From positions 336,355-400,354 of the forward strand of contig JAQTUX010000002.1 in NCBI GenBank assembly GCA_028707125.1: DNA of 64,000 nucleotides. Direction: 5' to 3'. Below are positions 1,986 through 64,000 of this stretch, piece after piece. The translations under genes and the position numbers were made by a program. Positions within the stretch are counted from its first letter, which is position 1, and every line of letters begins with the position of its first letter. This DNA comes from Candidatus Omnitrophota bacterium (GTDB lineage Bacteria > Omnitrophota > Gorgyraeia > Gygaellales > JAQTUX01). Under the pieces are notes generated by a model. It searched no databases. It saw only the letters and a list, made by a program, of their open reading frames with translations, and had not been told where the DNA came from.

Positions 1986-2830
1986 CCTGCCACCGCTCCC
2001 TGAGTAGCTCCCTTAACGATATATTTCTGCATAAAGATATACACCAGTATTATAGGTAAGGCGGTTATGGTCAAGCCCGCCATCAAAAGCGGATAGCGCG
2101 TAAGAAACTCTCCCTGAAAAGTAGTCAGGGCTACCTGCAAAGGCATAAACGCCTTGCTGTCAAAAATGATCAAGGCGAGGATATATTCATTCCAGACGTT
2201 AAGGGCGTTGAATACCACCACCACCGCGAGTATCGGCCTTGCCAAAGGCAGCGCCACATGCCACCATATGCCGAATTTAGAACACCCGTCCATGCGCGCG
2301 GCATCCTCCAGCTCAGGCGGCATCCTGTCAAAGAATGTCTTGAGCAGAAATATGCTGGTTGAAAGCCCCACGTTTATCATGCACAGGACATAACCCAGCG
2401 GGGTATTCCTCAGGTGCAGCTTATTTAACAATACGTAAAGCGGGACAAATCCTCCCGGAACAGGGATCATCATCGCCGCCATGAACATCATGAACAGCAA
2501 CGCCCTGCCGCGAAAACGCAGGCGCGAAAAGGCGTATGCCGCCATTGAAGCGACCAGTATTATGCCGATGACAACGGAAGCGGTATAGAATATGCTGTTT
2601 AAGAAATACCTGCCGAAGCCCCCCTCTTTCCAGGCAAGATAATAATTCTCAAAATGGGGCTCTTTGGGTATCAGCGAGGTGTCGGTGAATATTGTCTCCT
2701 GCGTCTTAAGGCTTGATGATACCATCCAGGCAAGGGGGAATACGCAGCTGACCGCGACCGTGATCAGCAGGATATGGATAAGCGTATTTATCGTTACATT
2801 CTTTGCCCTGTAATATGACCTGGCCTTCAT
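1982..2830 (-). CDS. Carbohydrate ABC transporter permease (MalG/UgpE-like inner-membrane component)
   Basis: 282-aa ORF with about six hydrophobic helices and the EAA-type motif ...DAARMDGCSKFGIWWHVALPLARPIL... typical of sugar ABC permeases. It is 4 nt downstream of the preceding permease. Confidence 0.9.
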   Translation of the reverse strand: MKARSYYRAKNVTINTLIHILLITVAVSCVFPLAWMVSSSLKTQETIFTDTSLIPKEPHFENYYLAWKEGGFGRYFLNSIFYTASVVIGIILVASMAAYAFSRLRFRGRALLFMMFMAAMMIPVPGGFVPLYVLLNKLHLRNTPLGYVLCMINVGLSTSIFLLKTFFDRMPPELEDAARMDGCSKFGIWWHVALPLARPILAVVVVFNALNVWNEYILALIIFDSKAFMPLQVALTTFQGEFLTRYPLLMAGLTITALPIILVYIFMQKYIVKGATQGAVAG

Positions 2831-6640: not shown

Positions 6641-6651
6641 GTTAAAATACC

Positions 6652-7014
6652 TTAATTAATCCCCGCCCACCAGTTCCTGGCCAGCTCATCCCTGTGGTTT
6701 TCCCGCACATAGAGGAATATCTTCTCCCTGTCAAGGTCGCCTAACTTGGTAAACCTCAGGCCCCGCTGCTTGTTGAAGACCTCATCCCTGCCCCAGACGA
6801 CCTTTGCCTCGGCCACAATGGGTTCAAGATAAGGGAATGCAACGATCATTTCAACATCGCTGCCCACAGGCAGATCATCCCGGCAGGCGATACGGCAGCC
6901 GCCGAAACTCAAGTCCTCGAGGCGGCATTGCCTGCGCTCATCTGACCCGGGCAGGCAAAATTGCGCTTCCTTCGCCTCGAGCTCCCACCTCGCGCTCCTT
7001 CTTCTTTCCCGCAT
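6652..7014 (-). CDS. PilZ-domain protein (c-di-GMP receptor-like)
   Basis: 120-aa ORF. The N-terminal RRxxxR motif (MRERRRSARW) and the downstream DLSFGGC (D/NxSxxG) match the two c-di-GMP-binding motifs of PilZ domains at the expected spacing. Confidence 0.65.
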   Translation of the reverse strand: MRERRRSARWELEAKEAQFCLPGSDERRQCRLEDLSFGGCRIACRDDLPVGSDVEMIVAFPYLEPIVAEAKVVWGRDEVFNKQRGLRFTKLGDLDREKIFLYVRENHRDELARNWWAGIN

Positions 7015-7098: not shown

Positions 7099-7116
7099 GC
7101 GAAACTTATTATCCGT

Positions 7117-10100
7117 TCAGTGCCGTCGTTCCTCTTCACTGTCCGCCCTGTTAACTGAAATCCGCAATATCCTTGCTACGGTATGCGCGCAATCCCTGCT
7201 TAACCCGAAATCAAAGAAGCAATCTGCAAGGCCGCGGTAGCCGAACATATCTCCTGGAATATAGCCAAACCCTGCGTTTAAGGCCTGCAGCACCTTCATC
7301 ATGCGCTGCATATTATCCAACTCAGCATACGGCTTTTTCTCTTCCCCGCTTAACGCGACACCGGATTCATTCAGGATCTCCAGGGCAATGGTAATGGCGC
7401 CCCTGTTGATCTCGGGAGCGTATCCGTTTTTGTATCTGCCTGCGATGCCGGCTAACCAATGTATTTTATTCTGCAGGTTTTCGGAGAGGGCGCTGATATC
7501 CGGCAGGCCCATACGCCCGCCGCGACGGGCATTGATAACCCCGTTGATCAACTTAAGGATATTTCTCTCTCTTTCTTCATCCCGGGCCTCCGCCTCTTTC
7601 TCTACAGCCTCACAGCCGCCGTCTCTAAGGATATCATCAAACCTGAAAAACGGCTCATAAAACATTTCATCCTGTTTCTTGCCGGCCGCGACAACCAACA
7701 GCACAACCGGAGTTAATACCGCCGACAAAATGAAAAATCCGGCTATGGTCCATTTTAACATATCCCACCAGCCCCACCCTCTTCCGAAGGCACCTGCTGC
7801 CTGCTCTGCCCCCAGGCAAATATCCGGAAACCCTAAGGCAAGAACGATCAACGCGAGCGCGCATGCAGCATATTCTAAGGATATTCTATTTTTTGCAGAT
7901 ATCTCATTCAAGCTCTCATAAAAATATCTAATTGAGGCGCCCCGGGGATCGGCTATAACTGCCGCCATTCCCATGTCCGCCCCGTCTGCCGTTAAATCTG
8001 CATAATCCCCTATGCCAATGGAAGCGAATTTCTCTGCCACCGCCGCCTTAAATCTATCGGCCGCGCCCTTCAATCCCTGTTGATCACCTCCGGATTTGTA
8101 ACCCGCGGCTAAGAAGTATAACTTGTAGTTACCCGGGGACAATTGGATCCTGTCCGCTATCTGCCTGAAATGCTCATGGAATTTAACATTTAAAGAATTG
8201 AAATGCCCTACTCCGCATTCGTTATTTTCTGTATCCATTAAAATGAATACTACGCAGTCAAAGGCGCCGAATGTCATCAGCGATTCATCCGACCATTTAA
8301 AATCATCCATGCCTACAGAATACCGCCCATCTCTGTATGTACCGCAAAACTCAAGCCATTGCGCCTCAGTCAATTCATTATCTATTATAATCTCTGCCTG
8401 CCGCTCATCCCCGCCCACCTCCCGGGTCGTGTCAAGGGGGCTGCTGGAGGCCTGCAACTTTTCAGCTAAGCGAGAAAAGCGGTCTATTCTGCAGCTTCTC
8501 GAATCGGCATTGCTGAACATGCTATCGATAAATCCATGCCAGTAAGAATCTATGCTTTTCTGGTCTTCTAAAGAATCTAAGAAGAGCGACTGGTTAGAAT
8601 CGGGAAATCTTATCGGCTGGGGCAGAGAAGATACTGGCTTTAATATGTTTATTAAATCCTCATTGCCATCCGACAACCCTTCTTTCGCGTGTACAATACG
8701 CTCCCAATCAATAACTACAAGCGGCACTCCCTGAAGGGCTGCCTTCAGAGCCGCGTCTACCGTCCCGCTCTCCCGCTTGCACTCAATAACTACGACAATA
8801 TCGCATAACGCGGTAGTGACGGCGTTTCTTGCAAGGGCAAGATCTATATCGGGAAGACAACGTCTCTGTTCCACCCAAACTATCGCACCGTTATTGATTA
8901 TTTGCTGTCTCGATGCTGGTTTCTTAAACACGCCTATCCCGCTTCCACTCCAGGGTTTGACGGCTATTGTGGTGCCTCCATTATCAATAGCTGCCTCATG
9001 GGCCGCTTCATCTATTCCGTAGGCACCGCCGGATACTACTGCAGCAGTAATACCCTTATTGGCCGCGTAACTGAAAGTAGAGCGCACCAATATGTCGGAC
9101 AAAAGACGACCGTCTGGGCTAGACTTAGTTGCGCTACCGATAATCCCTATGGTTAAATCCTGATTCAATACCGCCTTTACATCCCTGGATGAACTAACCA
9201 TTAAATGTGCCGGTGGAAAAACCTCGTCTATTTCGTAGGGGGTAGCGGGGATTCTTTTTAGTTTTCTGGCACGTATAACTTCAGGCCATGGATTCCGCAT
9301 AGCCGTTAAACATTCTGCTACTTCCATTAATCTCTCGACATCCATAAAACTAATTTCCCCAACCGGGCTGCTGGAGGCCGGTCCCGACATGGCTTTCATG
9401 GCTTCCCCCAAATATCGTATAGTCCTACGCGGATCAAACCTATCGCTGCCGTCAGGATCAACTCTTAAGCCGCTTTCGGCATCTATATTAAAAGGCAGTA
9501 CGGCATTTAAACCTGCCCTTATTTCCCGGATTTTTCTATCTACATTTGTATCATCTAACCCCCCTGCGACGCCTATGCTTAAACGCGGATACGCCTCTCT
9601 GATGGAATTGATCAATCCCGACGCGATCCCGCTATCTAATTCCTTGCCTGTGCCTAAACTTATGTCCAATAAGATCGCGTCTATATGCCCCTGATAAGCC
9701 TTCAGGTAACTAACTGCTTCTACTTTTACATTCGCGAATCGGTCTAATTGGACCTGAAGTATAACCTTGACTCCGATCTTTCTTATTGCATCCATCTGCG
9801 CGGCATCAATATCATCGCCAAATAAATTTATTTGAACCGCATCAGGCAATTGGTTTGATTCGTTTAATTGCCTGATAATATCGGTTAACATATTATCGCT
9901 TTTGGAGTGCTTGGAATAATGAACACAGCTCAGCAGGCCGGATCGCCTTAGTTTTTTCAAAATATTCTTCATTTCTTCAATATCAGTTATATAACGATTA
10001 GGATGCTTGCCAGACATGCTTTTTCCATCATCTACTATAAGAAGCCCTGCCATGGCTGAAACACCTTCAGTAGTTGCCTTGTGCAGTCCCTTCACTTTCG

Positions 10101-13100
10101 CGACTAAACTACAAACATCTGCTATTGAAGCTATGCCCGCGACACCAATATAGCATTTGAATGATCCCTCAAAGATGGCGAATTTATTTATATCCCCACC
10201 CCCCTCCTGCTTCGTGGCAAGCGGGCTGCTGGAAGCGACCGAACAAAGAGCATCTATTATTGCCTCAATGTTTTGGATGGGGGTGCGCGCAGGAGTATCG
10301 CAGGCAATGCTAAACACCATTTGACCTGCCTCTATATATTGCGCGTACCGCGCTGAATTCCCTGCTATCAATTCCCGTATTTGCGCGCAAGTCAAATCGG
10401 GTAAACGCGCCGCGGGGATTGAACCCATCACAACTGCCTTTTCCGCCAAATACCTTAGATGCTCCGCGAAACCTATTACCTCATCCACATGAAAAGCGTC
10501 CACTTCCAGTGCTGCCAGCGCCTGCATAAATTTATTTTGATACAAACTGGAATTACCGCAGTTGTGGTAAACCGCTCTCTTCTTTAACTCCTTTATCCTG
10601 GCGGCCGATCTTCCTGCTAAGGCAAAAATAAATTTCCTGCCCCTCGGCGGGCCAAGAAGCTCAAAAACCGGCCCGGAATAAGGATCAAGAATGATCATCA
10701 CATCGGCACCGGCGGCAATTGCCTGCTCGGCATATCGGATGCTTACCGCAGTGCAATAGTCAAATAACACCCCCACCGTCTCTGTTTGATATACTACCTC
10801 CGTGGCCATATCGTTTAACTTCTGCAGTACGCAAGCAAGGGTAGCCGGACCCATTACATAGGCAATGCGCGGAACATCCGGCAGCATCTGCCTAAAATGC
10901 CTTAGCGCATCAAGATACACCTTAGCGCGCCCATCTTTCTCAAAATCAGGAACTAGCAGCTTGGACACGTTTTCTGCAGTGAAGGTAAATGAATCATCAA
11001 GAAGATAATTATCTGCACCTTGTTTGATAGTACCTTCCCGCTCATCATAAACTGCCTTGATCTCTGGCGCCCCAAGGTGCCTGTTGACAAGCGAAACAGT
11101 CTCGGGAAATAAAACTAGATCCATTGCCGTAAGCACGTACGGCAGACGGAAACGCCTGTGCAAATATTCCATTAACTGAATCTGCGCATCTGCCTGATTC
11201 GTAGCCTGCCGGACAGTATAGCTGGCCGCCCCCTCCCGCGCCATATATCTCAATCCCGCCAAGCCCAGGGTCAGAAACGGCTGCCGTGTTTGCGCCCAGA
11301 CACGCAAGATATCATCCTCCGCCCCGCCCCCCGCCTGCGACGGGGCAAGGGGACTGCTGGAGGACTGCTGCAAACCGGTCAAGTTACTATATGATAATTT
11401 CCCACCATTTGGCCGAGACTCGTTCACCGATGAGGAATCAGAGGCAGGAGGGTTATTCCCGGCCGCTTCAAACCGCGCCTTTAACTCATTTGTTTCATCC
11501 CGGCTCAAAGGAAGATAGATGATCCGGGAACCTATCTGGATTCCCGGGGTTCCGGGGACGGTTCTCTCGCCTGTATCCCTTTCCGGCGCAGAGGATTGCG
11601 AGGATTCTGTTATATCCGCGCTACTGGAGGCCCGTCCCTCTCCGGCCATAGCCGCGGGACAGGATTGATTAAGAAATTCCTCTGCCTCCCCTATCCTCTT
11701 TCTTCCAATTAAGATTGCTAAAATGTTTTGGAGCTCAAAATTTGTCAGCTCTCTCTTCCTGGCCACGGAATGTACCCGCTGACCACGGATCCATTCTTCA
11801 TAATGAAATCCATCAAGAGTCCCCCCAAATCTGGGAACAAGACCAGCTCCATGGAGCCGCCGGATAGCATCCACCTGTTTTGATCCGGACATCCCGATCT
11901 GTTTGACAGCCATGGATTCGCGGCCGCTTCTCCCTGCACCGTGCCTCTTCAGAATTAACTCTAATCGGAAAACGGCTTTTTCGGTTGCCGTTATGAACCT
12001 AGCTTTTGCTGCGCCTATGTCTCTATGACGCGCGGCAAGCCCTGCCCTTTCTGCAATCTCATCATTGGCCCAGGTAAACTCTGCCTTTACCGCCCCGATC
12101 CGCTTTTCTACGCAGGGATAGTCTTTTTCGCTTTCTTCTGCCGCGGAAGAGGAACTTGGCACTTCCGGCTCCAGAAGGTATTGCGGCCCCTCTGCTGCCT
12201 GCCAAAATCTGTCCCATGAGACCTCATCCTGCGCGGCAGCAAGCGATCTGAATGCCTCACAAAGAACTTGTAAATCTTTGATTTTTTCGGTGGAAATTCC
12301 CAACTCCTCCCCCAAGAAAGCTTCCAAATTACCTGGGCTGACGGCTTTGCATGCGGCATCCCTTCTTAGCCGATTCATCCGGTAGATCAGACGCTGCTTT
12401 CTTCCCGAGATTGAAAAGTTACGGCAAATATAATCTTCGATGAATCTTCTTATCGCATTTTTGGCTCCGTTGACAAATACGGCACCGTTAATGCCGCCGC
12501 ATCTTGAATCCCACTTCCGAACAATATCTATAAGCCAAACCAATACTTCATTATACAGATCATCATATTCCACACCTAAACTGTACATATGACGGGAATA
12601 GTTATAAATCACGGTTTCGACCTGCCTTATTTTCATTGCCTCCCGAGCCAATTGGATCATCGGCTCGGTGGCTTCTTGAGGAATAATCCGCGCCATTTCG
12701 CCGGCATTTGCCTTTTCCCATTTGTATTCCCTGCCTTCGGCATTGATATAGACGTAGAAAACTTTCGGCCTGCCTTTATCTAACTCTATCTTTATCGGCG
12801 CTGCCTCGCTGTTGGGATAAAAATAATTGCTTTCACCCAGCCTTAAGCCGCCCCATCCATTCATGGTGATGCCGCCCTCGATAATGCCGGTGAATACATT
12901 CCGGGTTACCCATTTGTCTATATTGCTCAACTGCCATCCGCGCGTTTCAACCGGAGGAAAAATATTGACGATCTTGCCTTTATTATCCCTTGCCAGAACA
13001 TAAGGATATTCGTGAGGGCTCTTTTTGGCGGGGTCGTTTACTGTAACCCCGATACAGATATCGCCTTCATATTTCGGGATGACAGTTACGCCGCCTTCCA

Positions 13101-19100: not shown

Positions 19101-22100
19101 TCAAGAAAGAAAAAAACGCCCTTAATCTATCATCTTTTATGTCTCCTATGTTTACCTTGCCGTTATTTATGGCTTGGCGCACAAGCCGCTCATCAAGGCC
19201 GTTCACATCAGCAACCTTAATTATTTGTTGAACATCCAAAACTGCTTTTGCCTTCTCTAAAGAATTAAGGCATCTTCGCAGCTCCCCCACCCTGCCGTTT
19301 AATTCTCCTACTTCCGGATTTTCTACTTCACCGCTTACCTCTACGAGCGTTCCATTATGCTCTGTGCCCACCCATTCCGTCCAAGTACCCATTATTTCTC
19401 TCGGGACCTCTTGAAGCCTGCGTTCAGCCCACAATAAATGCTTCCTAATGGACGGTATAGCCGAAGGATCATTCATAAGTACGAGGCTCCATGCCAGATA
19501 AAGCCCCCCATCAACGTCGAACATCTCTATTAATGGTTTCACAGCCCTATGGTCCTTCAGTTCTCTGAGAACCCATATGGCGTTGAAACGAATGCGGGCA
19601 TTCTTATGGCTCAGGGCTTCTATCAATATGGAGACGACATCTATATCCTTGCCTACCTCTCCTATTCCATCTATCGCTTTATAGGGCCATTCCTCTAAAA
19701 GATAGGCATATACTTTTGCCCTTGGGGTCCCTATTCCTGATAATGCTTCTCCGATTGCTCCATTGATAATCGTTTTATACAACCACGCGTCTTCCGTAGA
19801 AAAAATGCTCCGCCCAGTATCGCGAATGGCCGCAATCAGTAAATCTACTACGCGGGGATCGCGGATTTGCCGGATCTTTTCGAGGGATTCATGATCAACC
19901 TCTGCATCACGCCGGCAGAGTAGGTCTCCTATGGATTCCTCAGCCGGGCTGCCGGAGGCGCCAGAAGACTCCAAAGCCATCACAAGATCGGAATCACCGA
20001 TAAGCGCCCTTAACAAGTATGGCCATTCGATTCTCATCCACCTGATTGCCTTAATATCGCCGTTTAATGCCTGCCGGACCATGGATTGTTTCTGCGCGTC
20101 CCCGGGAAAGGTCAACTCTATCATCTCGTCGGCGATACCAACAATGGACTCCGGCCTGAATCCATATACCAGCCATAAATGCATAGCCATTAATCTGTCA
20201 CGGTCCTCCTGCTCGGCCATAGAGATGCGCGATCTGTATTCTCTATCTTGCCGCTCATCCCATTCGCTCTGATGCGCCCCTGTCTCTTTTTGATACATAT
20301 CGGCAATAACCTGTTCATCATAATCATACCTCAAGGCGCGGTTACTAACGCGTATATTCTCGACTCTTCCGCCTGCCGGTTGCAACAAAACAACAACGGT
20401 GAATATCCTGGAAATCATCTGTTGCAACGCCCTTGCTATTCCAAGCCGATATTCAGCAAATATGTACATTCCGAAATAAACATCGTACAGACCCTCCTTA
20501 ATAGACCGAACATAGTCAAGGGCACCGTAGCCAATAATATTTTCATCCTTCGTAATCGCGTATATGTAAGTATGCGGAGTGACTATTGTAAAAGGACAAG
20601 GCAGTATGATAGCTCTTATGTTCTCCGTAAGTATGGCGATATTACCCTGATCCTTAAGTTGTTCAAATGTAAACATCGCCTCCATAAACCTGCGATGACC
20701 TGTTAATGCCTCCTTTAACCTCCGGTAATACGCATTTGTTTCTTCTGCTGAAATATAACATAGTTGCCCCTCACCCGGGCTGCTGGAGCCGCCCTGCTCT
20801 TGTTCCGTTCCCGTAACACCGGAGCGGAAGATTCCAAAATCAATGATCGCGTCATAACGCGGCAGATTCGCCGCCCTCCTATCTTGCGCCCTCAGGGCTA
20901 TAGATGCCGGCGTATCTAGACGAATCTCTCGGTTCTTGCCGCTCTTAACCGCATCCCGAGGCTTCTTTCTGCTGCTTTTTTTAATCCTATATCCGTCTCT
21001 GATCAATATTGCTTCAAGTTCATCTAACGAATCATTACAGGACTCCAAGGCCTCTATATCAAGGGACAATCTGCTGTAATCCTGCAACAGGCCTGCCATA
21101 AAATCCATAATAACCCGGAGATATTTCTCATCGTATCTGCCCCTGACCATGACTGTAGCGATGTCCTCACAATACAACTCCAAACCTAACAAGGTTAGCG
21201 TGGATTCATAAAGGCAGTCAAAATACCCTATATCCCGCGTTTTGTTCCTTATTAGAACCTGAATGCTCAGCCCGTCCTTTTCTCTTACCAGGGCTATACA
21301 CTTGCTTAAGGTTATGGACGGGGTTGAATGGATACCCCTGGGGTCGGCGGGATTACTGTATATCTTAACATCCCGCTCGATACATGTCTCAGCGATCTCC
21401 CCGCCCTCCGCCTGCGGCGAGGCAGGCGCGCTGCTGGATGCGCCCGGCGACATCCAACCTCGGTCCTGCAACAGAAGCCAATTGCCTTCAAGCGGCAGAC
21501 ACTCCACCCACTCTTTTATTACTTTATCAGCCGCGGCCTTATCCTCTCCGTTGGCATTATGCCGCGGCGCTGTTTCAGACCTCTCTTCCTCATCACACAA
21601 CTCTCTCCATAGGTCAACTTCGCTTGGTGGCATCATCCTCATAACCCTCTGTATCATGACCAAGACCGCATGAGGGTTGGCCCGCCGCAGCTCCCCGGCC
21701 TGCTGAAGTAGAGACCTCGCCGCCTGTGTGGCTATATCCTTCAGAAGAGGCAGCCTCATTGCCGTACCATAATAAATACCCTGCCCGTCAAAAATAGGCC
21801 TGCCCTGTTCGGAAAGAAGTAATTTTTCCTTAAAGGCCTTTGCTAATTCCTCCAAGCCCATCTTCCGGGGCTCCAGGACATTGAATACCCGCGGAACCAC
21901 ACAGCTGAAGTAATGGCGTATTTCATAACTATCTTTCTTTTCTTTGGCGCGCTCAATAATGAACTTCACTATCTCCATAAGGCCAAAGACAGCCGGAAAT
22001 TCCGCGGCCTCCAGGTAACCCGGGTCATCTGCCGTGCCTATCTTAAGGACCTCCTCCGCGGCAGCCTGTTTTATCAATTCAACTACACGATGATGGACAA

Positions 22101-49100: not shown

Positions 49101-52100
49101 CACCTAAGGCATATGCTGCTGCATTGCGGACATCCCAGTCTCCATCTTTTAATGCCTCTATGAGGGCAGGGACGGCAGAGGGGTCGGCGATATTACATAA
49201 GGCATATGCTGCTGCAAAGCGGACACCCGGGCCCTCATCTTTTAATGCCTCTATGAGGGCAGGGACGGCAGAGGGGTCGCCGATTACACCTAAGGCCTCT
49301 GCTGCTTTATGGCGGACAGCCCAGTCTTCATCTTTTAATGCCTCTATTTTTAATGCCTCTATGAGGGCAGGGATAGCAGAGGGGTCGCCGATGTCACCTA
49401 AGGCCTCTGCTACTTTATGGCGGACAGCCCAGTCTTCATCTTTTAATGCCTCTGTAAGGGCAGGGATAGCAGAGGGGTCGCCGATGTCACCTAAGGCATA
49501 TGCTGCTTCGTAGCGGATATGCCGGTCTTCATCTTTTAATGCCTCTGTAAGGGCAGGGATAGCAGAGGGGTCGCCGATTACACCTAAGGCCTCTGCTACT
49601 TTATGGCGGACAGCCCAGTCTTCATCTTTTAATGCCTCTATGAGGGCAGGGACGGCAGGTTTGCCTATCTTAACCAATTGTGCTATGACTTCATCCGAGT
49701 CAGAAGAATTCCCTAAATTCCTCATCAATCTCCTTATCTTCTCCTCACTCACAGCAGTAGTCTCAGCCGTTACAGCTGTAATTGTAGTTAAGGAATGGGT
49801 ATTGATGGGTTGGGCAGATGTGATTGTAGATGTGGAAATTAGCAGGGTTACAGTAATTAGCAGGATAATCAGCGCCTTTTTGGCCAATTTCATCAGAGGC
49901 GGCCCATGTGTCTTAACTGCCCTCCAGGCAAGGTAGGCAAAGAGTACGCCTGCCGCCAAGATAAGTGTTTCCGCAGGATGGCTGACTATGAGCCCAAGTA
50001 TGGCTGCTGTGCTCACCGGCTCAAAGCTGCGCAGCTTGAAGTCGCCCTTGGGGAAGTGGGGCTTATGCTTCTTAGCGAACAGCTTTGCGACTCTGTCTTT
50101 TGTTCGTTTGAACCATTTGTAACCAGACCTTAGAAGTTTTATCAGGTAAGGTAATACCATTAATGCTGCTATTATGCCTATTGCATAGTGTAGGGGCTTT
50201 GATGTAGTGATGAAGGTGTAGGTACTCCTGAAGAAGCTGTCTGCGCCCTCTTTTAACCTGTCCACCTTTTCCTGGATGATCTCTGATAGAGGCACAGGCG
50301 TTGCTGTCGGTGTTGGTGTATTGACGGCTGTCGGGATAGCGACAGGGGTATTTGTCGGAGCCGGCTCAGGAGTGGAGGTTGCTGTCGGCTCAAGGGTGGG
50401 GGTATCGGTCGGCTCAGCGGTCGGGCTTGGTTTGAGGGTATTAGTTGGGGTTGGCTCAAGCGTTGCTGTCGGCTCAGGTACGAGCGTCAAAGTAGGCGCA
50501 TGAGTGGGGGTATCGGTCGGCTCAGCGGTCGGGCTTGGTTTGAAGGTATTAGTTGAGGTCGGTGTCGCTGTGAATGTCGGCTCAGGGACAGGGGTAAAAG
50601 TAGGCGTATGAGTGGGGGTGGGGATACTAGTTGGCGTCGCCGTAGAGGTCGGCGTGTGAGTGGGCGTAAAAGTAGGCGTATGAGTAGGCGTGGGCTGCGG
50701 CGTTGGGGTTATAATTTGAGTTTGAACAGAAGGCTCGTTTTGAATCTTCTTTATAGCTTCAGCGGCTGCGTCTCTAACGGACTCATCTTCATCATTCAGA
50801 AGTTCGTTAAGCACATTAAGCGCCCCTGAATCTCCGATCCTACCTAATGCATTGGCTGCGGAGCGACGGACACCCTCCTCTTTATCATTTCGTGCTGCTC
50901 CAATAAGGGCAGAAATGGCTCGTTTATCACCTACTACACCTAGAATATCTGCTGCATCTGCGCGGACAAAGGCGTCTTCCATTTCTCTAATAAAGTCGGC
51001 AAACAGACTTTTATGCTGTCTCAATATCCTGATAAGAGAGGGGACAGATCGCCTGTCCTTTATTTCCATCAATGCTTCAGACGCAGCTGAACGAAGCGTC
51101 CAGCCGCCTTCTTTTAATGCATTAATAAGTGGCTCTACTGCCTGCGCATCTTTAATTCTACCTAAGATCTTTGCTGCGTGTGAACGAATACTAAAAGACT
51201 GTTTTTTATCTCGTAATACTTTAATAAGATAGGGAACGGCCGGCTTACCAATGCTGACCAACTGTTCTCCGACCACTCCATACACACTATACTCAAGTCT
51301 CAATCTGCTTATTAGATTCTCTATTTCTTCCTCGCTGACATTGGCCGGCTGAAATGCTGTAAGTGGATCGGCTGCTTTCATTGCATCGGCGATTGCTTCG
51401 GGATATTTGCGGAGATTCTCGTAGGCAATGCCTCGGTTTCTATAGAAATCGGGTACTTTTGGGTTAATCTCTATGGCCTTAGTGTAATCAGCGATTGCTT
51501 CGGGGTATTTACGGAGTTTTATGTATATATATCCTCTATGGCTGTAGTAATCCGCGTCATTGGGCTCCAGCTTAATGGCTTCATTACAGGCCTCCAATGC
51601 CTTCTGGTAATCCTCTTGCTCACGGTATTGCGCGGCCTCACGGAAGTAGTCATTGGCTGACTTCTGCTGTTGGGAGATGATCGTTTGTTGCGATATAAAC
51701 GCGGGCATATTGCCGTATTGGGCGGGTGTGGATGCGGGTGTGGATGCCAGCAGGGTCATGATGATCAACAGGTTGATCAGCGCCTTCCTGGCGTATTGTA
51801 CTATCGGCGGGCCCCATGCCTTTATCGCCCTCCAGGCGAGGTAGGCAAAGAGTACGCCTGCCACAAAGATAAGTGTTTCTACAGGATGGCTGACTATGAG
51901 CCCAAGTATGGCTGCTGTGCTCACCGACTCAAAGCTGCGCAGCTTGAAGTCGCCCTTGGTGAAGCGGGACTTAGGAATGAGGCCTGCCGGGGATGCGGCC
52001 GCTTGTTCTGATGTCTTTTCTCCGCAGTATCTGCCCATCAGGCGCAGCAGGCCCTTTGCCTGCTCTTCAATATTGCCCTGGGTCATGCCCATGCGAAGAG

Positions 52101-55100
52101 CGTTATAAGCGGCCAGGCCGTAATTATCCGGGTGGCTCCTGCCGTAATAGTCATCGCAGGCGTCTTTGACCGCGCGCATAAACGACTCCCAGTTCGGCCA
52201 TATCTCGTTATCGCCCCAAGGCGTATTCTCATAATCAACCACGTATCCGGTGCCTCTTAATATCCTCTTTAACCCATCCCGCGCCATAGCCCTCAGGCGC
52301 TCAAACAGCACCCCGTCCAAGACCGCGATGGTCGGGGCGCCGTTCTGCTGAGAATTGGTTATGCTCGTCGGGCCGGCCTCTTTGCCTTTCTTTGAGATCA
52401 TCATGCCGAAATTGGCCCCCTGCTGAATGATCCAGGACGTCACCACATTGTGATCGTCAATGAAGAAAAGGTGGTAGCGCATGCGCGGGTCTATCGCGAG
52501 CAGCTGCTCGAACTTACGCTGCAGATTATAGCCCCACTCGTCGAACCTCCTGCCGCCGATAAGAAATACCGCCCCCCATTCTACTATAAGGTCCCTGTTG
52601 GCCGCGTCAAACATCCGGTCAAGGAACCAATCAAGGCATTTATACGGGACCATCCTGCGTACAGCCGCGATAAATGCCATATCGTAAATCCTGACGCCAA
52701 GGGCCCTGAGTTCCTCCTTTGTTATAAAGACCTTTCCGAACGCGCCGTCAAACAACTGGTCGATCAGGTATTCCTTCTGCTCCTGCTTTATCCGCAGTAA
52801 CTCCTTGATAAATTTATCCTTGTCTTCGGGCTTATGGTCCAGCGCCTCCAACAAAGCATCGGGTATGGCTACCTTAAGCCGTTTCATGTTGTTCTTAACC
52901 AGCTCCTGTATGCCTTCGCCCTGCCAGCGAGTTATGTCCGAGCCCTCGCTGTTGCCGAAGAGGTCGTCCTCAACCACCTTGCCGCTGAATTCAGCGAATA
53001 TCTCGTTGCGCAGGATCTCCGTATGGAGGGAAGAACACCCTGTGATAAAATCGCTCACCCTGCCGGTGATCCTCACCAAGTCTATGTATCCTGTTTTGTC
53101 GTGCCCTTTGGCCTTGACCATGGTATCCCTGAATTCTTCGGCTATCTTTAACACATCGAACATGTAGTCATTATAATTACGCATGCCGTCAAGGACGATG
53201 GTGTGATTGTAGTGATGCACGACTATATTGCTGAAGAACGGGTCTGTGTTATAGCCGTCGTTGACAACGCGGGGTATGGCCAGCGTAGTATTGGTTTCGC
53301 TGGTTGAGAAAATAATCCTCTTGCCTACAGGCGTTACCTTAGCGGTATCTATTTCAACCAGCGGACCGAAAGCGGTAAATCCAAGCGGCCTCCAGGACAC
53401 ATAATCTTTATCGCTCTCCGGCTCCCCTTTCCTTCCTGATTGTTCCTTGATGAAACGGAGCAGGACCCTGCGATATAACAATGTCTGCAGGGCGCGCATA
53501 TCATCGTCATCGGGATAGGCCTCTTCAAACACCTCCGGGCAATACATCCAGTATTCGTTCAGCTCGGATTCCGGATTGCAATACACCTCAACATCCACGC
53601 TGTTTTTACCGTTATAAGGCCTGGGCAATTCGATGCCGCCATATCTGGTTATCAACCTGAGACCGCCCCTTACGACCTCAATAAGCTGCGGGTCCACGAT
53701 ATCCTCTTTGAACCCCTTGATCTTTTTGGAGTAGAATATGCCCATAACGTTCAACTGTTTGCGCGCCGCGAACGGCCCGCCGTTATAACGCGAGAGCACC
53801 CTGTACCAGCCCCTTACCAGGTCGGGCTTGAAGCTGCCCAGCCCTCCGGACATAATAAGCTTGGCGATTATGCCCGCGCAACGCAGCGCCTTGCGCATAA
53901 ATCCCCTGGTGTGCTTTAATGTTATAATTAACGCCCGCAGAAACTTTATTGAAAACTCATATTCCATCTGCAGCACCCAGATATCGCTGTCTCCGATATT
54001 CTTTATCGCGTTCTGTAACTCATAATCCTTGAATGCCCTTGACCAGGCCGTATCAACAGCGTACCCCTTCATTTCATCCTGCCTGGCCTGGCCGCGGATA
54101 AGCAGGGAAACCCGGTGCTTTAATTCGGGATCATCCTCAAGTATCCTGATGAGTTTCCGGGCCCCTCGCAGGTTCGACTTGGCCTTGCCATAAACTTCAT
54201 TTAATCTCTCCAGCGTAAGCGCGAATCTACCCGCGCCCTCTTGCGGCAAGGTAAATATCTTTCCGGGTTGGCGCCCGGATGCCTCCGCGGAAGATGAAAC
54301 ATGATCCTCATCAAACAAAAGGCCTGTTGCGGCTGAAATAAATGGTTCCCCACCAGCCACGGAGAGGTTAACCACTGCCGCAACAGGCCATGAAGTTACA
54401 TATAGCCCGGCTGATCCAAACGATGATACCGGGCTGAAACCAAACCGCTGACCGGTTATTGACTCTATCGCGCTCTTAAACATCCGGAAGCTGCTCATCC
54501 CCGTGCCATCAATCCTGTCATTGATGACGAAGCGGTCAATCTTATCTGGATTATTCAGATATGCGTCCATGGCCGCGATGTTTTCTACCATCCGTATGGC
54601 AGCATTATCCTTGCCGGAGGTCATTTTACGAAGTATGCCGATATGCCGCACTCTTTCTTCCCGCCAATGTTTTAACGAGAACGGCAACATCAGTATGCTG
54701 GCTATATCCGCTATCTCTCTCTCCAGCATATTGAGCGTTTCAAGTGTCGTAGTATCAAATAACAACCGCTTTCCGCTGTTCTGCTGCCCAGCGAAGGCCT
54801 CTTTCTCCGCGGCATACTGCCTGCCGTGCCTTTCCCTGACCAGCATCAGTGCCCCGGATTGTTTTAAGGCATCAAATTCTTCCGCGCTGACCAGATGTTT
54901 ATGAGTGTCTCCGGACTTCTCATCTTGATGCGCCTGGCGGGTAGATATCTGGATGACCATGGCGAAATTATCGGGATGCGCTGCTATCAACCTGCGGCAG
55001 AAGGCCGTCTTTCCTACTCCCGAAGGCCCGATCACGGCTATTACCTTAGATGCGGCGGCGGATGAAGAGGCGCTGTTGTTCATCTCTACTTCTTCGCCTA

Positions 55101-58100
55101 TATAGTGAAGGCCGTATTTAATCTCTTCTTCGCTTAATTGGCTAAGGGGCCTGCTCAGCCCATATCTGCTATCGCCTTCTTTGCCGGAGCAAACTATATG
55201 CAGATCACAATAAAGCTTTTGTTGCTGGACGGAATATTCCAAGAACTGCATCCGGACATAAACACCATCTTTGCTATATCCCTTCCTTTCCATCACCCCT
55301 AACGCCTGTCCAAGATCAAGGCCGGTCTTACCTCTGATAACCCGTATCAGCACTCCTTTAAAATCGCCTGCCAATCCTTCAAGGGTCAAATCCTCTTTCC
55401 TGCCCTGGCCGGCCTGGAAAATGGCCTTAAGCAGAGGATGCGCGATCAAGGCGGCGTGGTTAAGATTCTCTAAAAACTCTGTCAAATCTACAAATATGCC
55501 TTTATTTCTATCAAATACGAATATTTTATTTATCCATTCCCGGGGCACATCCTGCCTGGTCTCAAATACGAGATTATCCATGCCGTTCCATTCGGGGTTA
55601 TTATTAATATTAACCTGCGCCACAACGGACAAGAAATCATCCTTGGGGTACTTGTGGAACTCACACGGCCAGAAAGCATAGTTGATCGCTTCAGCCGGCG
55701 AGACGTCAAACTCCATCAGCCATCTGGTGGCCTTCCAGATCTCAAGTCCATTAGCCGCGATCTCTTTCAGGTCACCAAGATGAAGACGCAGCCCCCTATA
55801 GGTAAATCTTTCCGGGTTATATTCCATACCGGATTTCTCAGCGATCTCACCACCGCGGTAATCACGCGGCACGCCCTTTTCATCAGCAAAGAAATAAGGC
55901 GCAAACAGCGTGTCCGGCTCGGAAGACACCCTCTCTTCAACCGATGGCGCACGGATCGCCTGAACGCTTCCTGCGGCACGGTAGGCGTTGTTTCTTTCCT
56001 TAGTATTCCACCTTCGGAATTGGACGATATAAATACCATTTTTTACCGCGAACTCTAAATTAATGGGGTATTTCAAACGGCTATACATAGCAGCCGCGAT
56101 ATGTATCAAACCGCGGACATCCTTTTCCGCGAGAGAAACGTCTGATCCGTTGATCCCAGTTCTGTCGGCTTCAAAAAAGTCCAATATATTATTAAAGAAA
56201 GAGTATTCCCAGCAATCCGCGTCCCTGTCTTCCTGCGTGCCGCCGGCCAGCCCCCTGGCGGCATTAATAAATACATTGCGGGAATCAACCAGTATAACGC
56301 CGGACGCTTCCGGGTCTATCTGGGCTTGCAAGGCGATCGCCATAGGATACTTATTCGTAGCGTCCACCGCGAAGTTGCTTGCGATGACTCCCAGCACCGC
56401 CTGAACCAGCCCATCAAAGTTTGATATGTTTGGAATGCTCCTGTAGGTTCCCGGCTGAGTGCCTGATATGTCTTCAACTTGATTTGAAGAACGCGCGATT
56501 GTAACATTACTGAAAAACTCCGCGTACTCTAACCACAAAGGCCTTAGGCGCTCCGCGACTAATTTTACTATCCTGTCTTGATACAGTAATCGTTCAATTG
56601 CCCTATACCTTTCTTCGTTACTTTCATTCTCTATGATTATTGACCCGATCTCATCGCCAAGGACCGCCATAATATCTTCATAAAGCCGGGTGGTAACAGC
56701 TATGGTGGGGACTAAGAAGAAATCCCAGAATATCCTGCGATGAAAATCATCTAATGCCGCCAGGGTGCTGGTCTTGCCTCCGATCAACTCCGGAAGCCAT
56801 ATCCCGCCTGCGAAGAAATCGATCCAGTATTGATGAGAGTTTTCTTCTTTTACGTTTTTCTGTTGCCTGTCAGATTCAGCTGCCAGATCCTTAAAGATGC
56901 CTCTTAGCTCCCGGTCATCCCTGCAAAGATGGAGCTTGATACAGTAGTCCATCTCCATCAACAAACCCCTCGCGGCAAGAAAATCATACGCGCCCCAGGT
57001 CTTCTTCGCCAATTTCATCCTGGCATCCTTAAGGACATCGTTTAATACCCTGTCCAACGCGCTGTTTCTCCCGTCGTTATATATATTGAATTTATCGATT
57101 ATTTCCCTGTCCGGATCCTGCCCCATTAACCCCGCTAAAGCGCCATATAACGAAAACTGCCTCTTAACCTCGCCATTGTGATGGAGCAGCTCCGGAAAAT
57201 TATTGATCCTGCTAAGAGCGTCTATATTCCTGTCCAGTAAATCGGTTAAATCCCTCGCCAGATCATAGAACACCGGCGCCAACAAAAATTCCAGGTCTTT
57301 TACCTTCTTGCCTTTAAGGCCGGCAAAAATAGCAAAAACCTCGGTATCATCGCCTTCTCGCAGGGCTTTATATAGCGAAAGGAATTTATCCCCTTGATTT
57401 GAAACCAGATATACCTCGCCCTTGTCTCCGTCTATCATGACCTTGTCTCGGCTATCCAACACAAAGGACCTCTTCTGAGGACATGCCTTTAACAGATAAG
57501 GGCGCCAGTTCACGGGCACATAAGAATATGTTAAGCTGTCAATCCTTGCGATCCGGCCGCTCGCGTCGGCAATAAATGGATTCGGGGACTCCTTACTGTT
57601 CAACACTTCTACGCGCGGTATCCCCAATACCCCCAGGGAAAGATTGATATGGCTGGCGATATTACCCCGGGTTTCTATTTGAATAATGCCCTTTACTCGA
57701 TCGCGATGTCTGGTTATCCAGGACAGCATCTTCTCATCAACATCATGGACCAATAAGACCACATCGCCCTTTTTGCCGAATTCCTTTACTGCGGGCCTGT
57801 CGTTCCCCGGGAGGATCTGCACCAATCTGCCGCTGGCAAAGCCGTCTGTAAGGCCCCAGCCCTGCAGTATGCGATGTATAGACACGGGTAACTCCGCCGG
57901 CCTTGTCTTTCGCGCTTCCCTAATGTCAATATCGCTCTGGGATGCCTTGTCCGGCCAGATATCTTTAACATGATGCCCTGCCTCGATTATCCTTTGTTTC
58001 AGATCAGAGGCGCTTACTGCCGAACTGCTTAAAGAAACCCCCAGTTCATATCTGTCCCTCAAGCGATTATAGAACCCTATTATCCTATACGGCTCGTCAA

Positions 58101-61100
58101 ACAGGTCTATTTCTATTATATAAAGCTCCCATCTGCCATACTTTCCGATATGGGAAAGGTTAGAATACGACCGCTTGTCTATGGCGTTAAGCAGATCACC
58201 CATTTCTCGCGCGGAATCCATATCAGAGTCAAGACACTGGTCAATGTAGTCAAAAATATCAAAACCCGGGTTATTCGCCAATTTCCCTTCTTTCGTAACA
58301 ACCTGGCGCGCCGCGATGGCTTGTAATACAGGATTTACAAAATAACGATTGAAAACCGCCTGATTCACCATAACCGGCATATATTCGGGATTTTCGTTGC
58401 CTTCTCCTAATGGCAGGTTGGGTATTGTGCCCAGGCCCGGCCCTAATCCGGTCAAAATGGCGTTCAACCATTCAATTGTAAAATATCTTATCGGCTCAAA
58501 GACCCCGCTTTGCCACATCTTCTGCCGCATATTGACCTGGCCCAATACGGCCCTATATATCATGTCGTTCGGGCTTATCCCCAGCTTCAACGCGGTTGAT
58601 AGGTCGCTGTGCTTAGGAATATCATACCAGCCCCCTGAGGCGTACTTGCCCCATTCAGTATCCAGCTCAACCAAGTCTTGTCCGTAGCATAAACCGGAAA
58701 CAAGATGCGTAAACCATAAAGATACCGACGAAGGATACATCCTGGCCCTTTGTTTCATCCGCGCGCCTAATTCTCCCAGAATGCATGTGCGCGGAATATT
58801 GCCCAGGTCTTCTCCGCCATCTGTTACCCCGCCGCCGCCGATAATCATACCTTCATAATTACCCCCGCTATAGTGCGGGCTGATGTTAAACTCTATATAA
58901 ACAGTGTGGGCGGCGCCTCGGTCCTTATAGTCCACACTCACGATATTCCTGTGCACGTATATATTCACAAAATCGCTCAGCCGGACAGAAACGGTATCCT
59001 TGCCTATCCCTAACGGCAGGTTCCTCAGGAGCGCCCTTAATACGGGAGAAATCTTGAACTGTTCAGGGTCAAACCCCAGATCGCAGACAGCGCAGGTCTC
59101 TTCATCCCTGATCTCCAGATTAAGGGTATCCAATAGCAGCCGCCTCACCTTTATCTCCACCTTGTTGCTTTTAGCCTTTAAATAGGCGCTATGCAGGAAA
59201 TTAAGCATCTGATTAAAATTGGACACCTCTCCAAGTTCCGGCTCGTTATTCCGCCAGCAAACCGGCCCCTGCAATAAGGCCTCCTTTCCGGATTTATCGG
59301 CCTGGAGAAACGCGCGCTCAAGCTGCCGCAGCTTTTCCTTAAACTGCCCAGCCGTATATTGAGAATTATCCGCAAGGCGCTCTAAAGAATCGGCGAGAAG
59401 CGCAAAATCAGAAAACAAGGCCTCTGGATCCGCCTCTGCTAAGGCGCCGCCTATTACTGCCTTCAACTTTTTATGCGTATCCTCAAAGCTTTCAATGCAG
59501 GGCCTCATGTCCTCTTCTATCTTAACGAAACTCAAATAATCCATCCTGAAATAAGGCCCCTCTAAAACCATTTTTAGAGAATAGCGGTATCCCTTCTCTT
59601 CAAAAGTCCGTTCTTGAGATAAACCGTCAAAAAGGCCCCCGAGCTCAACCGGGACCTCCAGGACAAAGTAATCGCGGACATCCTCCGGGAAACTTCGCGG
59701 GCGCGGAGGCGGCAGGTCTATTAAAGAGGCGCTGACCTTTAACATATATATTTTCCTTACATCGATTATTCTTCTTCTTAGTTCTTTCGGGCCGACAGCC
59801 CTTCCGGCTTTATTATAAATAGTGTGTAATTCGCAAAATTGGGTGGCGAAATCAAATTGAATCGCTGAAGAAGAACCGGCCTGTTCCTTATCTTCCCACC
59901 ACACTCCCATCTCTCTTAATTCCGCGTCTGTGTAGGTTGAAGTCACCTCAACGCCTCTTGCCGCCTCATCGGCAGGCATAAGGCGGGGCTCTGTGATAAG
60001 CGGGTCTTCATCCTTAAGGATAGCGGCTACCAGGCCGGTTATAGTGAGCTCCTGGCCTGAAGCGATCTGCTCCCGCGCCTTAAGGATGGCCCCTGATAAC
60101 ACCTTACCTATATTAAGGCCGTAGGTCCTGTCCTGGATATTGGGCGTGAGGCCGCGGATGATGTAGCCGGGGATATTCGGGCGTACGCCTGAGATAATGG
60201 CGTGTTTGACGTCTTCGCTTACCTTCTCTTCGCCAAATGCATCTTTGTCTCTAAATCCATTGGCTTTGAGTCCTTCTCTGAAGGCTGCCAGGGCCTGGTT
60301 TAGTTCAGGGTCAAATCGCGCCAACTCCGGAAGGTATTTGAGGGCGGCAACCACGTAGTTGGAGAAACCGGTAAGCTTGGGGTTGCCGTGGATATCGTAT
60401 TCCCTGACGGCATAGAAGGATGCCCTGGATACAGGGTCAAGCTCCAACAACTTGTAGAACAAGCTGTCCTTTGACTCTTGATGGCCCTTGCCTGTATCCT
60501 TAAAGTTGTAGCCCTCGCTCACATTTACATTAACGTAGAGACGCATCAGGCGCGTACCCACGGGCCGCAGGCAGGCATCATAGACGATCTCCTCTTCGGC
60601 CATGCGCCTGAGCGCTTCAATAAAGAAATATTTCAGATAAGAGGTCCTTTCGGGAATAAGGTTGATGATGCTGCCGCCTATCTGCTTAAGCATCAATTCT
60701 CTTCCGGGGATAGCCCTGTCGCGCTCGCTTATACGGGGGTCGCCGGTACCGATAACCACCCAGCCCCTGTTCCTGCCCATTTCCTCAAAGACAGACGGCT
60801 TGGTATGCCCATAGGCGCTGACACAGGTAGCTAAGAAGTCTCCTCTTTGATGCTCTATGGCGCTATCCGCGCCCAGCGGCTTGGCAAAGGTATCATTGTC
60901 AACGGTCTTAAGCGCCGCGAATACCGGAACAGGGATATTCCTCTCCTTAAGGAGATTGGCAAACTTTGCTGCCTGCCGGGCGTGGTCATCGCCGCCTATA
61001 AGCACCACTGCCGCGAAATCCCTGACGTTGGCAACGGCGTTCTCCTGGTTCTTATCGTCTAATTTCGCGCGGGAAGAACGGCTGATAATGGAAGGAAGAT

Positions 61101-64000: not shown

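Follow-up and report, generated by a model that had tools for sequence, protein, structure and literature searches.

A 57-kb open reading frame at an Omnitrophota-type locus and the serine-rich linker that marks the joints between its modules

The giant open reading frame and its locus

The window analysed here is a stretch of 64,000 nucleotides (nt) of contig JAQTUX010000002.1 (assembly GCA_028707125.1). Its minus strand holds the sole long open reading frame (ORF), which occupies positions 7120-63999 of the window (2-56881 of the reverse complement), comprises 56,880 nt or 18,960 codons and is closed by a TGA codon at 7119-7117. Downstream of this giant ORF lie genes for a PilZ-domain protein, a sugar-type solute-binding protein (SBP), an MFS_2 transporter, two ABC permeases and a GH2-family glycoside hydrolase (Table 1). 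We describe the giant protein encoded by this frame and a short serine-rich element, SSS(P/A), that marks the joints between its gene-sized modules. The giant ORF on its own adds one more example and no discovery; what deserves further work is the linker element.

The 57-kb frame is a genuine coding frame. Its 19 blocks of 1,000 codons are all free of stops, whereas each alternative sense frame contains 40 to 90 stops per block, and it covers 88.9% of the window, which agrees with the 89% claimed by an earlier reading of the letters alone (hereafter the sequence-only reading). The coding signature is constant in all 19 blocks: the guanine + cytosine (GC) content of first codon positions exceeds that of second positions, and the GC content of third positions (GC3) is comprised between 0.48 and 0.69. 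The longest open stretch outside real genes in the window reaches 377 codons, in line with the earlier statement that chance frames run to a few hundred codons at most. The GC content of the window is 50% and, at ~6.5% stops per codon, a chance origin of an 18,960-codon open frame is excluded. A tandem-repeat expansion was considered and rejected as well. GC3 reaches 0.69 over the first 1,000 codons (61000-63999), like in the flanking genes (0.63-0.70), against 0.48-0.60 in most other blocks; the codon composition is heterogeneous along the gene.

The sequence-only reading had placed the start of the frame at 7117 without stating the strand. The frame itself stands, position 7117 being the last base of the TGA codon, and since the frame runs on the minus strand, it is the 5' end, beyond 64000, that is missing, as that reading had it. 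The frame is indeed still open at 64000, and the earliest in-frame ATG is found at 63987, 13 nt inside the window edge. For these two reasons the true start cannot be placed, and the earlier deduction that the true gene is larger is possible but unproven. The contig extension that had been advised gave nothing: the exact 40-mer of the window edge was not found in GTDB species representatives or JGI metagenomes, and a protein-guided metagenome scan with amino acids (aa) 1-500 yielded at best a 39-residue match at 49% identity, so that no relative allowed an extension in 5'. At the other end, the Logan contig SRR22315508_957569 (11.5 kb, independent assembly) is 100% identical to positions 5873-17014 and spans the last 3,298 codons of the giant ORF, its stop, the PilZ gene and the start of the SBP gene; the PilZ protein of the window was found exactly in one contig only, 11.5 kb long. 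Rfam and tRNA scans of the window gave no match. Direct DNA repeats with 92-98% identity are present within the ORF (48442-48660 and 50083-50301; 38008-38163 and 40567-40722; 44851-44916 and 52330-52395). They encode identical transmembrane (TM) or linker segments, e.g. YAIGIIAALMVLPYLIKLL and ALTGFIITGLAAALVYLSV, each found twice; they may represent recent duplication or gene conversion within the gene and are possible traps for short-read assembly.

The PilZ gene is equipped with a separate promoter-like site (7098-7070) and with the Shine-Dalgarno sequence AAGGAG. A scan with the SBP of one genome per GTDB species detected 80 loci at 64-71% identity, nearly all titled Candidatus Omnitrophota or Omnitrophica; a few third-party annotation (TPA) assemblies are titled 'uncultured Planctomycetales'. 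In the syntenic loci the permeases are 70-82% identical and the PilZ gene is 24-35% identical. In 34 loci the sequence upstream of the SBP gene exceeds 8 kb, and 10 kb were fetched from each. A same-strand frame, open at the start of the fetched sequence and ending less than 3 kb before the SBP gene, is present in 24 of them, and in 21 of those 24 a PilZ homologue lies between this frame and the SBP gene. No ribosomal or other marker gene is located within the window. According to West-Roberts et al. 2023 (bioRxiv 10.1101/2023.11.21.568195), an Omnitrophota giant gene is followed downstream by pilZ and then by genes for solute-binding proteins, permeases and glycosyl hydrolases, and Nielsen & Lui 2026 (bioRxiv 10.64898/2026.06.07.730766) highlight GH2 flanks for Omnitrophota giants. 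Flank homology, synteny and the published locus description together support the assignment of the host genome to the Omnitrophota, which the sequence-only reading had flagged as unverified, and support the view that the locus corresponds to the conserved arrangement 'giant ORF, pilZ, sugar ABC transporter, GH2' known for this phylum.

Some variations of the locus were observed. The MFS_2 gene is inserted between the SBP gene and the first permease in the window and in three other loci (L033, L043 and L057), follows the second permease in ten (L019, L038, L041, L047, L049, L056, L062, L067, L069 and L080) and was not found in most loci; its position in the conserved locus is thus variable. One metagenome-assembled genome, isolate STD1_209, contains two copies of the giant ORF-PilZ-SBP-permease locus on different contigs (L010 and L032). 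Two plus-strand ORFs antisense to the GH2 gene (486-944, 152 aa; 1209-1727, 172 aa) have no Pfam match and are probably spurious.

Modules and predicted membrane topology of the giant protein

Domains were searched with Pfam, on two staggered sets of 1,000-aa tiles (E <= 0.01 for negatives), and with NCBIfam. The tiled search, which the sequence-only reading had recommended, reveals a mosaic of divergent domain matches. The kinase-, methyltransferase-, nucleotidyltransferase- and penicillin-binding protein (PBP)-like units and the repeat scaffolds announced by that reading were all recovered by the profiles. Its count of at least 25 recognisable modules was too high, with ~13 families above the Pfam cut-offs and ~5 weaker ones (the segmentation by linkers, described below, gives 35 segments). 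The giant protein, of at least 18,960 aa (~2 MDa), is therefore a beads-on-a-string mosaic of divergent, motif-retaining versions of stand-alone enzymes, scaffolds and TM helices. The phosphofructokinase-like module retains the motifs SGGDxxGxNA, KTVDND and MGR, and the MtaA-like module keeps HxCG and the distal Cys. At least two methyltransferases, a GT51 domain, a GT35-like fragment and a transpeptidase are present, and no glycoside hydrolase or NUDIX domain was matched by Pfam or NCBIfam. No GGDEF domain was detected in the 18,960 aa present. A dockerin-type giant protein was ruled out by the absence of PF00404 and PF18884 matches (dockerin and TSP3 repeats) in the overlapping tiles.

As the sequence-only reading had stated, this is no simple repeat protein. 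Self-comparison by BLAST displays few duplications: the TPR/HEAT/TM module, a 150-aa TM segment at 50% identity and the two methyltransferase modules, which are paralogues (module 1 is 37% identical to aa 12752-13044). DNA tandem repeats consist of ~650 nt of HEAT repeats, the only sizeable ones (49009-49658, in the TPR/HEAT zone), and a few short arrays; they cover less than 2% in all, and repeats of any kind less than 10% of the length. Over the duplicated TPR/HEAT/TM zone we also note that the GC skew is positive only at 48001-52000 (+0.13, against ~-0.15 elsewhere), which is probably an effect of amino-acid composition.

Two modules point to the cell envelope. The class A PBP-like module contains a GT51 transglycosylase followed by a transpeptidase in which STSK (SxxK), SIN (SxN) and KTGT (KTG) are intact, and it is bracketed by TM helices at aa 5475 and 6446. 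Its scores are low for a family member (PBP_1a_fam, 71 bits for a cut-off of 509; Transpeptidase, 20.3 for 22.1). The second module is an internal pilin-like unit. At aa 8684 the sequence ...KAKFPSYSSKDAG/FSLIELLVAVAIILVVATFAMRSYQGHINWAQ... (the slash marks the cleavage point) corresponds to a canonical class III (prepilin) signal followed by the pilin alpha-1 helix. After this signal, KDAG/FSLIELLVAVAIILVV, the unit continues with an amphipathic helix and a domain of 190 aa, and a TM helix follows at aa 8920. A K-rich loop precedes the signal, another TM helix lies ~230 aa after it, and the predicted orientation is N-in/C-out. Here the scores exceed the cut-offs (N_methyl, 30.4 bits for 21.2; TIGR02532, 27.4 for 16.3). 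The unit is located 8,683 residues into the frame and not, as in pilins, at the N-terminus after a short leader. The motif occurs once in this giant and was not found in 81,000 aa of C-terminal fragments of other giants. By term search, the main texts of West-Roberts 2023 and Nielsen & Lui 2026 mention no penicillin-binding or transpeptidase module, and these two and Seymour 2023 mention no internal prepilin cleavage motif. Through the PBP1a-like unit and the internal prepilin signal, the protein is connected with peptidoglycan chemistry and with the type II/IV machinery that has been reported beside such genes.

The hydropathy scan detects 35 non-overlapping 19-residue peaks at a Kyte-Doolittle value >= 1.6 and 46 at >= 1.5, which bears out the dozens of TM helices claimed by the sequence-only reading. 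The candidate helices are concentrated at aa 4000-9500, in addition to the C-terminal pair. By the positive-inside rule, the TPR/HEAT scaffolds, the PBP-like unit and the pilin-like unit are predicted to be periplasmic and the long TM-free enzyme regions to be cytoplasmic.

Homologues were sought at several levels. HMMER with aa 17401-18600 against 1.84 billion representatives recovered 3,151 matches, each to a single domain; none exceeds 2,291 aa and none joins two modules. The best match of the MtaA-like module displays 38% identity over 366 aa and that of the DprA-like module 44%, in a 481-aa protein. The best named relatives of the MtaA-like module are Omnitrophota proteins (31-38% identity), some of them partial large ORFs. 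No database protein with the same architecture was found. Word-indexed searches with aa 1-1200, aa 17634-18960 and the dark module aa 15562-15888 gave no matches; for aa 17634-18960 this reflects a sensitivity limit, since the full HMMER search found single-domain homologues there. A PDB sequence search with four chunks matched HEAT/TPR, guanylate kinase, MtaA and DprA only, with no match for aa 9402-14200.

Table 1. Features of the giant ORF and of its downstream genes. All lie on the minus strand; positions are those of the window and residues those of the giant protein.
Feature	Position	Residues	Evidence or remark
Giant ORF	7117..63999		18,960 sense codons + TGA stop; 5' end open at window edge
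Phosphofructokinase-like module	60751..61293	903-1083	Pfam PFK 2.4e-19, 70 bits
PPDK_N (PEP-utilising enzyme, ATP-grasp)-like module	56290..56790	2404-2570	Pfam 1.1e-11
Guanylate-kinase-like module, P-loop GPSGVGKT	54508..55047	2985-3164	Pfam 1.8e-11; TIGR03263 3.2e-15
Carbohydrate phosphorylase (GT35)-like fragment	52282..53094	3636-3906	Pfam Phosphorylase 8.6e-11
Duplicated TM-TPR-HEAT-TM scaffold zone	47800..51972	4010-5400	Pfam, PDB search, self-BLAST, hydropathy
Class A PBP-like module	45136..47028	5658-6288	Transgly 3.6e-9; PBP_1a_fam 6.7e-20
HemK2/MTQ2-like S-adenosylmethionine (SAM) methyltransferase module 1	42208..42681	7107-7264	NF011529 7.5e-14
Polytopic membrane region, ~10-12 helices	39550..42024	7326-8150	Hydropathy; no Pfam/NCBIfam match
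Internal pilin-like unit	37255..37950	8684-8915	N_methyl 2.6e-7; TIGR02532 2e-6
Pol-beta-type nucleotidyltransferase motif, GS...DLD	33964..34101	9967-10012	Polbeta 3.9e-5; NTP_transf_2 4e-4
GNAT acetyltransferase-like module	25795..26037	12655-12735	Acetyltransf_1 5.6e-5, 23.8 bits > cut-off 20.7
HemK2-like methyltransferase module 2	24697..25146	12952-13101	NF011529 1.6e-9
Weak HTH matches		13570-13895	Profile search
Extended linker example GASSSAPASPQAEGG	21399..21444	14186	Two more copies 17327-17379, 14090-14142, 91-96% DNA identity
HEAT		14773-14830	Profile search
Weak sigma-70-like match		17125-17265	Profile search
MtaA/CmuA (URO-D fold) methyltransferase-like module	10222..11292	17570-17926	URO-D 1.6e-29; NF004889 7.6e-30
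TIM-barrel/PRAI-like module	9385..10158	17948-18205	PRAI 4.2e-5; ~260-aa stand-alone homologues, 28-40% identity
DprA/SLOG-like module	8476..9360	18214-18508	DNA_processg_A 7.5e-19
C-terminal TM helix pair	7690..7869	18711-18770	Hydropathy
Exact linker 9-mers	plus-strand coordinates 8440, 9367, 10225, 14128, 15217, 16315, 17365, 18232, 20779, 21430, 26242, 27172, 28054, 29260, 32671, 63661		Within the minus-strand giant ORF
PilZ-domain gene	6652..7014		PilZ 2.2e-13; directly downstream of giant ORF
SBP_bac_8 sugar-type solute-binding protein gene	5248-6570		Pfam
MFS_2 transporter gene	3715-5223		Pfam
ABC permease genes (two)	2835-3713 and 1982-2830		Pfam
GH2-family glycoside hydrolase gene	1..2012		Glyco_hydro_2_C 1.1e-11; cut by left window edge

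The SSS(P/A) linker in this gene and in other giants

Runs of at least three serines occur 43 times in the giant protein, against 5.5 +/- 2.2 expected from composition-preserving shuffles. Only one such run is found inside a domain (8.9 expected, P=0.0004), whereas 11 lie at most 35 aa outside a domain edge (3.4 expected, P=0.0008). The runs at aa 17546, 17923, 18209 and 18518, for instance, coincide with the outer edges and the junctions of the MtaA-like, TIM-like and DprA-like domains. Merging nearby runs divides the protein into 35 segments with a median of 354 aa, every recognised enzyme domain being included in its own segment. The SSS(P/A) linkers thus mark the joints between ~35 gene-sized modules. 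In the 3' half of the gene the motif is extended to (G)ASSS(A/P)xPxxQ(A/E)GGG, and in nine linkers of this half the serine run is followed, 8-12 residues further on, by Q(A/E)GGG or a comparable Gly-Gly. At the nucleotide level, 16 of the runs are encoded by a single 9-mer, TCCAGCAGC (TCC-AGC-AGC), which is present 18 times in the window (0.67 expected), 17 of them on the coding strand.

The same element was then examined in the C-terminal fragments of 30 syntenic giants (81,000 aa) and, as control, in 628 ordinary ORFs taken from these loci (263,000 aa). SSSP occurs 51 times in the giant fragments (1.2 expected, a ~40-fold enrichment) and three times in the ordinary ORFs (2.0 expected). About 12 of the 30 fragments carry the motif, nine being clearly enriched, and the remainder are devoid of it. 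In an unbiased k-mer count, SSPV and SSSP lead the interpretable 4-mers. Of 150 single-domain homologues, only P0056 contains SSS[PA], and all the large ones lack it. The giants also display a second motif, (A/S)ASPL(A) (e.g. ASPL, 34 occurrences for 2 expected) in loci L005, L006, L015, L019, L024, L055 and others; it is often situated 3-6 residues before SSSP, forming a bipartite AASPxxxxSSSPV.

The cross-species linker also has a characteristic nucleotide core, TCC-AGC-TCG-CCG-G, of which TCC-AGC-AGC is the variant of the present gene. The codons of the motif differ from the usage of the same genes: TCC 68% against 14%, AGC 58% against 22%, TCG 56% against 11% and CCG 66% against 33%. Conservation ends abruptly outside 13-14 nt, the flanks being unrelated. 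The 11-mer TCCAGCTCGCC is found 21 times in 1.15 Mb (both strands), and 19 of these occurrences are in giant ORFs, all in frame and on the coding strand. About 30% of the SSSP sites use other codons, e.g. TCA TCA AGC CCT, for the same peptide, which indicates that the peptide is selected too. Each giant gene has its own preferred variant of the linker, which suggests homogenisation within a gene.

This linker, codons included, is common to giants of other species that have no other detectable similarity. It is not mentioned in the main texts of West-Roberts 2023, Nielsen & Lui 2026 and Seymour 2023 (term search), and a literature search for 'SSSP' and 'giant' gave nothing relevant among the matches listed. 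In practice, it provides cut sites for the structure prediction of giant proteins, as well as precise places to look for cleavage, glycosylation and phosphorylation in proteomes and for pauses and RNA ends in transcriptomes.

Proposed function, alternative readings and known systems

We consider it probable that the window contains a genuine Omnitrophota giant gene in its conserved locus, encoding a membrane-anchored multi-enzyme platform of the cell envelope. The polypeptide would be threaded through the inner membrane, with the ATP- or SAM-using modules (phosphofructokinase-, PPDK-, guanylate kinase-, methyltransferase-, nucleotidyltransferase-, GNAT-, MtaA- and DprA-like) facing the cytoplasm and the TPR/HEAT scaffolds, the class A PBP-like unit and the pilin-like unit facing the periplasm. 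So arranged, the protein could work as an envelope platform and, together with the receptor of cyclic di-GMP (c-di-GMP), the sugar importer and the GH2 enzyme, might serve attachment to a host or prey cell and the processing and uptake of its material. This last role is proposed because of the published model (predation or episymbiosis) and the co-location of the c-di-GMP receptor, sugar importer and GH2 genes.

Several observations weigh against this interpretation. Every NCBIfam match of the enzyme-like modules is far below its family cut-off, so the enzymatic activities are putative, and the listed domain envelopes account for 22% of the residues, ~78% lying outside them. The motifs of the GT51 domain are partly altered, with EN for ED and a second catalytic Glu that is apparently Gln. 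The topology is based on a Kyte-Doolittle scan and counts of K/R only, which is crude, with ambiguous stretches near aa 5432-5475 and 6446-6666. AlphaFold models made from single sequences could not be used, the predicted local distance difference test (pLDDT) being 40.9 for the pilin-like unit and 41.2 for the polytopic region. Neither SecA_DEAD nor an N-terminal C39/S8 peptidase domain, described as typical of complete giants, was matched by Pfam in the overlapping tiles, although the N-terminus may lie outside the window. Finally, comparison of the giant with the syntenic giant ORFs (tblastn, phmmer) recovers HEAT repeats only, so that orthology of the giant gene cannot be shown. The syntenic giants are also little alike among themselves: the C-terminal 3,000 aa of three of them contain, respectively, HATPase_c (L002), two methyltransferases and a response regulator (L010), and a radical SAM domain (L045), and are mostly Pfam-dark. 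With flanking transporters at 64-82% identity and giants unrelated in sequence and domains, a rapid turnover of modules is suggested.

Two readings would deny the giant gene itself or its mosaic nature. An artefact of assembly or consensus, with unrelated loci joined or frameshifts polished away, is conceivable for a sequence derived from a metagenome, in which near-identical internal repeats (219 bp at 97.7%, 156 bp at 92%) could mislead an assembler and for which the second assembly confirms the last 10 kb only. We nevertheless regard it as very improbable: joined loci cannot by chance leave 18,960 codons free of stops, all 19 blocks share one coding signature, the same linker element recurs throughout the ORF, 24 further genomes, from independent projects, have comparable multi-kb open frames at this locus, and far longer ORFs of this kind are reported in studies of complete genomes. 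A surface adhesin, an RTX-type repeat protein or a megasynthase (nonribosomal peptide synthetase or polyketide synthase) is scarcely credible. Size and the presence of TPR/HEAT repeats are what this assignment has in its favour, while the overlapping Pfam tiles display no Ig-like, cadherin, RTX, dockerin, TSP3, condensation, AMP-binding, PP-binding or ketosynthase match, the share of repeats is small and unrelated enzyme-like modules dominate the content.

The two other alternatives concern the linker. The protein may be a polyprotein, made as one chain and cut at the SSS(P/A)...GG(G) linkers, for example by a C39 double-glycine or an S8 peptidase, or at the prepilin site G8684/F8685, where a prepilin peptidase would free a pilin-headed C-terminal fragment of ~10,300 aa. 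The position of the linkers at domain edges, giving gene-sized pieces, agrees with this idea, as does the Gly-Gly of the nine 3'-half linkers; the internal class III signal is canonical, with its K-rich loop before, a hydrophobic helix after and a predicted N-in orientation. Type II/IV secretion and pilus genes have been reported upstream of Omnitrophota giants, and West-Roberts et al. raise cleavage as an open question, the cleavage points being unknown. However, no protease is encoded in the window and cleavage is hypothetical, the SSSP sites of other species do not have the Gly-Gly part, and the prepilin motif is single here and absent from the C-termini of the other giants. The known substrates of prepilin peptidases have short N-terminal leaders, and not 8,683 residues before the site. 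We therefore hold the polyprotein to be possible but doubtful. It is unlikely, in our opinion, that SSS(P/A) is mainly a nucleotide-level signal of the coding (non-template) strand placed in tolerant linkers. Such a signal could be an ops-like pause or anti-termination site that reloads a NusG paralogue, needed by a transcript of at least 57 kb, or a recombination joint allowing modules to be acquired or lost; RNA ends or polymerase pauses would then be expected at TCCAGCTCGCCGG. The codon choice far from the same-gene background, the conservation confined to 13-14 nt between unrelated flanks, the strand bias of TCCAGCTCGCC and TCCAGCAGC, the gene-specific variants suggestive of homogenisation, the wholly different module content between species at a conserved locus and the mobile-element and recombinase genes reported near giants all speak for it. 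Against it stand the single reading frame of the 19 11-mers in giant ORFs, the ~30% of SSSP sites with other codons and the concentration of the exact 9-mer in the 3' 26 kb of this gene instead of an even spread. The site is also unlike the ops of E. coli, and, at 13 nt and without inverted arms, it does not resemble the known sites of recombinases.

A wider proposal, which we advance as speculative, is that SSS(P/A) represents more than a flexible tether, namely a dedicated punctuation signal of Omnitrophota giant genes, present at every module joint and read by a specific machine. Candidate readers of the peptide are a processing protease or the conserved Rotamase_2 peptidyl-prolyl isomerase of the neighbouring secretion locus; candidate readers of the nucleic acid are a transcription-elongation or a recombination factor. 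If this were true, the signal would explain how giant genes are assembled and expressed and how they diversify; it would also provide the boundaries, of modules or of cleavage, that earlier work called unknown.

Returning to the probable membrane-anchored platform, its modules and linkers can be compared with several known systems. Viral and eukaryotic polyproteins, and fusion enzymes with Pro/Ala/Ser-rich linkers such as 2-oxoacid dehydrogenase E2 and cellulases with PT linkers, also have independent gene-sized catalytic modules and short low-complexity linkers at the domain edges. Contrary to these, the present protein contains ~35 functionally unrelated modules and a linker core with codons fixed across species, and its cleavage is only hypothetical. 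The PBP-like module resembles class A PBPs (PBP1a family) by the canonical order of GT51 and transpeptidase, by the motifs SxxK, SxN and KTG(T) and by the preceding TM helix, but it differs by its low score, its altered GT51, its position in the middle of a giant and the further TM helices that follow. Similarly, the pilin-like unit shares with type IV pilins and type II pseudopilins the canonical G/F-x-L-I-E-L-L-V class III signal and the long N-terminal helix, but it lies deep inside the chain without an initiator Met, is followed by a second TM helix and has a globular part without detectable similarity to pilins.

The closest systems are the giant proteins of the Omnitrophota. Seymour et al. 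2023 (PMC10066038) found giant ORFs of more than 20 kb, called 'poorly conserved', in 77 of 116 Velamenicoccia genomes, Nielsen & Lui 2026 counted 5,761 Omnitrophota proteins of at least 10,000 aa, 80% of them sequence singletons, and West-Roberts 2023 described the type protein 'Archaeovorin' of Velamenicoccus archaeovorus (39,678 aa). The present locus belongs to an Omnitrophota genome and displays an ORF of more than 20 kb, the pilZ-SBP-permeases-glycosyl hydrolase series and numerous TM helices. With Archaeovorin-type proteins it shares the phylum (by flank homology), the single giant ORF, the many TM helices, the divergent methyltransferase- and glycosyltransferase-type domains and pilZ directly downstream, followed by solute-binding protein, permeases and glycosyl hydrolase. 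It differs from them in that no SecA_DEAD, C39/S8, NUDIX, GGDEF or glycosyl-hydrolase domain was detected in its 18,960 aa (N-terminus and upstream secretion locus being situated beyond the window) and by its PBP1a-like unit, prepilin signal and SSS(P/A) linker, which are absent from the main text of West-Roberts 2023 by term search. The 'multi-enzyme metabolic cluster' class of Nielsen & Lui 2026 is similar in several respects: many Pfam families of which none is dominant, internal HEAT/TPR scaffolding (here the only repeat, in one zone), modules of the kinase/phosphotransferase, sugar-metabolism and methyltransferase types, membrane anchoring (TM content is near-universal in the class), a GH2 flank and the status of sequence singleton. 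The commonest families of that class (starch synthase, GT1, PGM/PMM, HATPase_c, response regulator and radical SAM) are absent here, whereas families commonest in that class occur in the syntenic giants of other species. At 19,000 aa or more, the present giant is at the small end of the catalogue of Nielsen & Lui 2026. It is a further, sequence-unique example of a phenomenon documented since 2022-2023.

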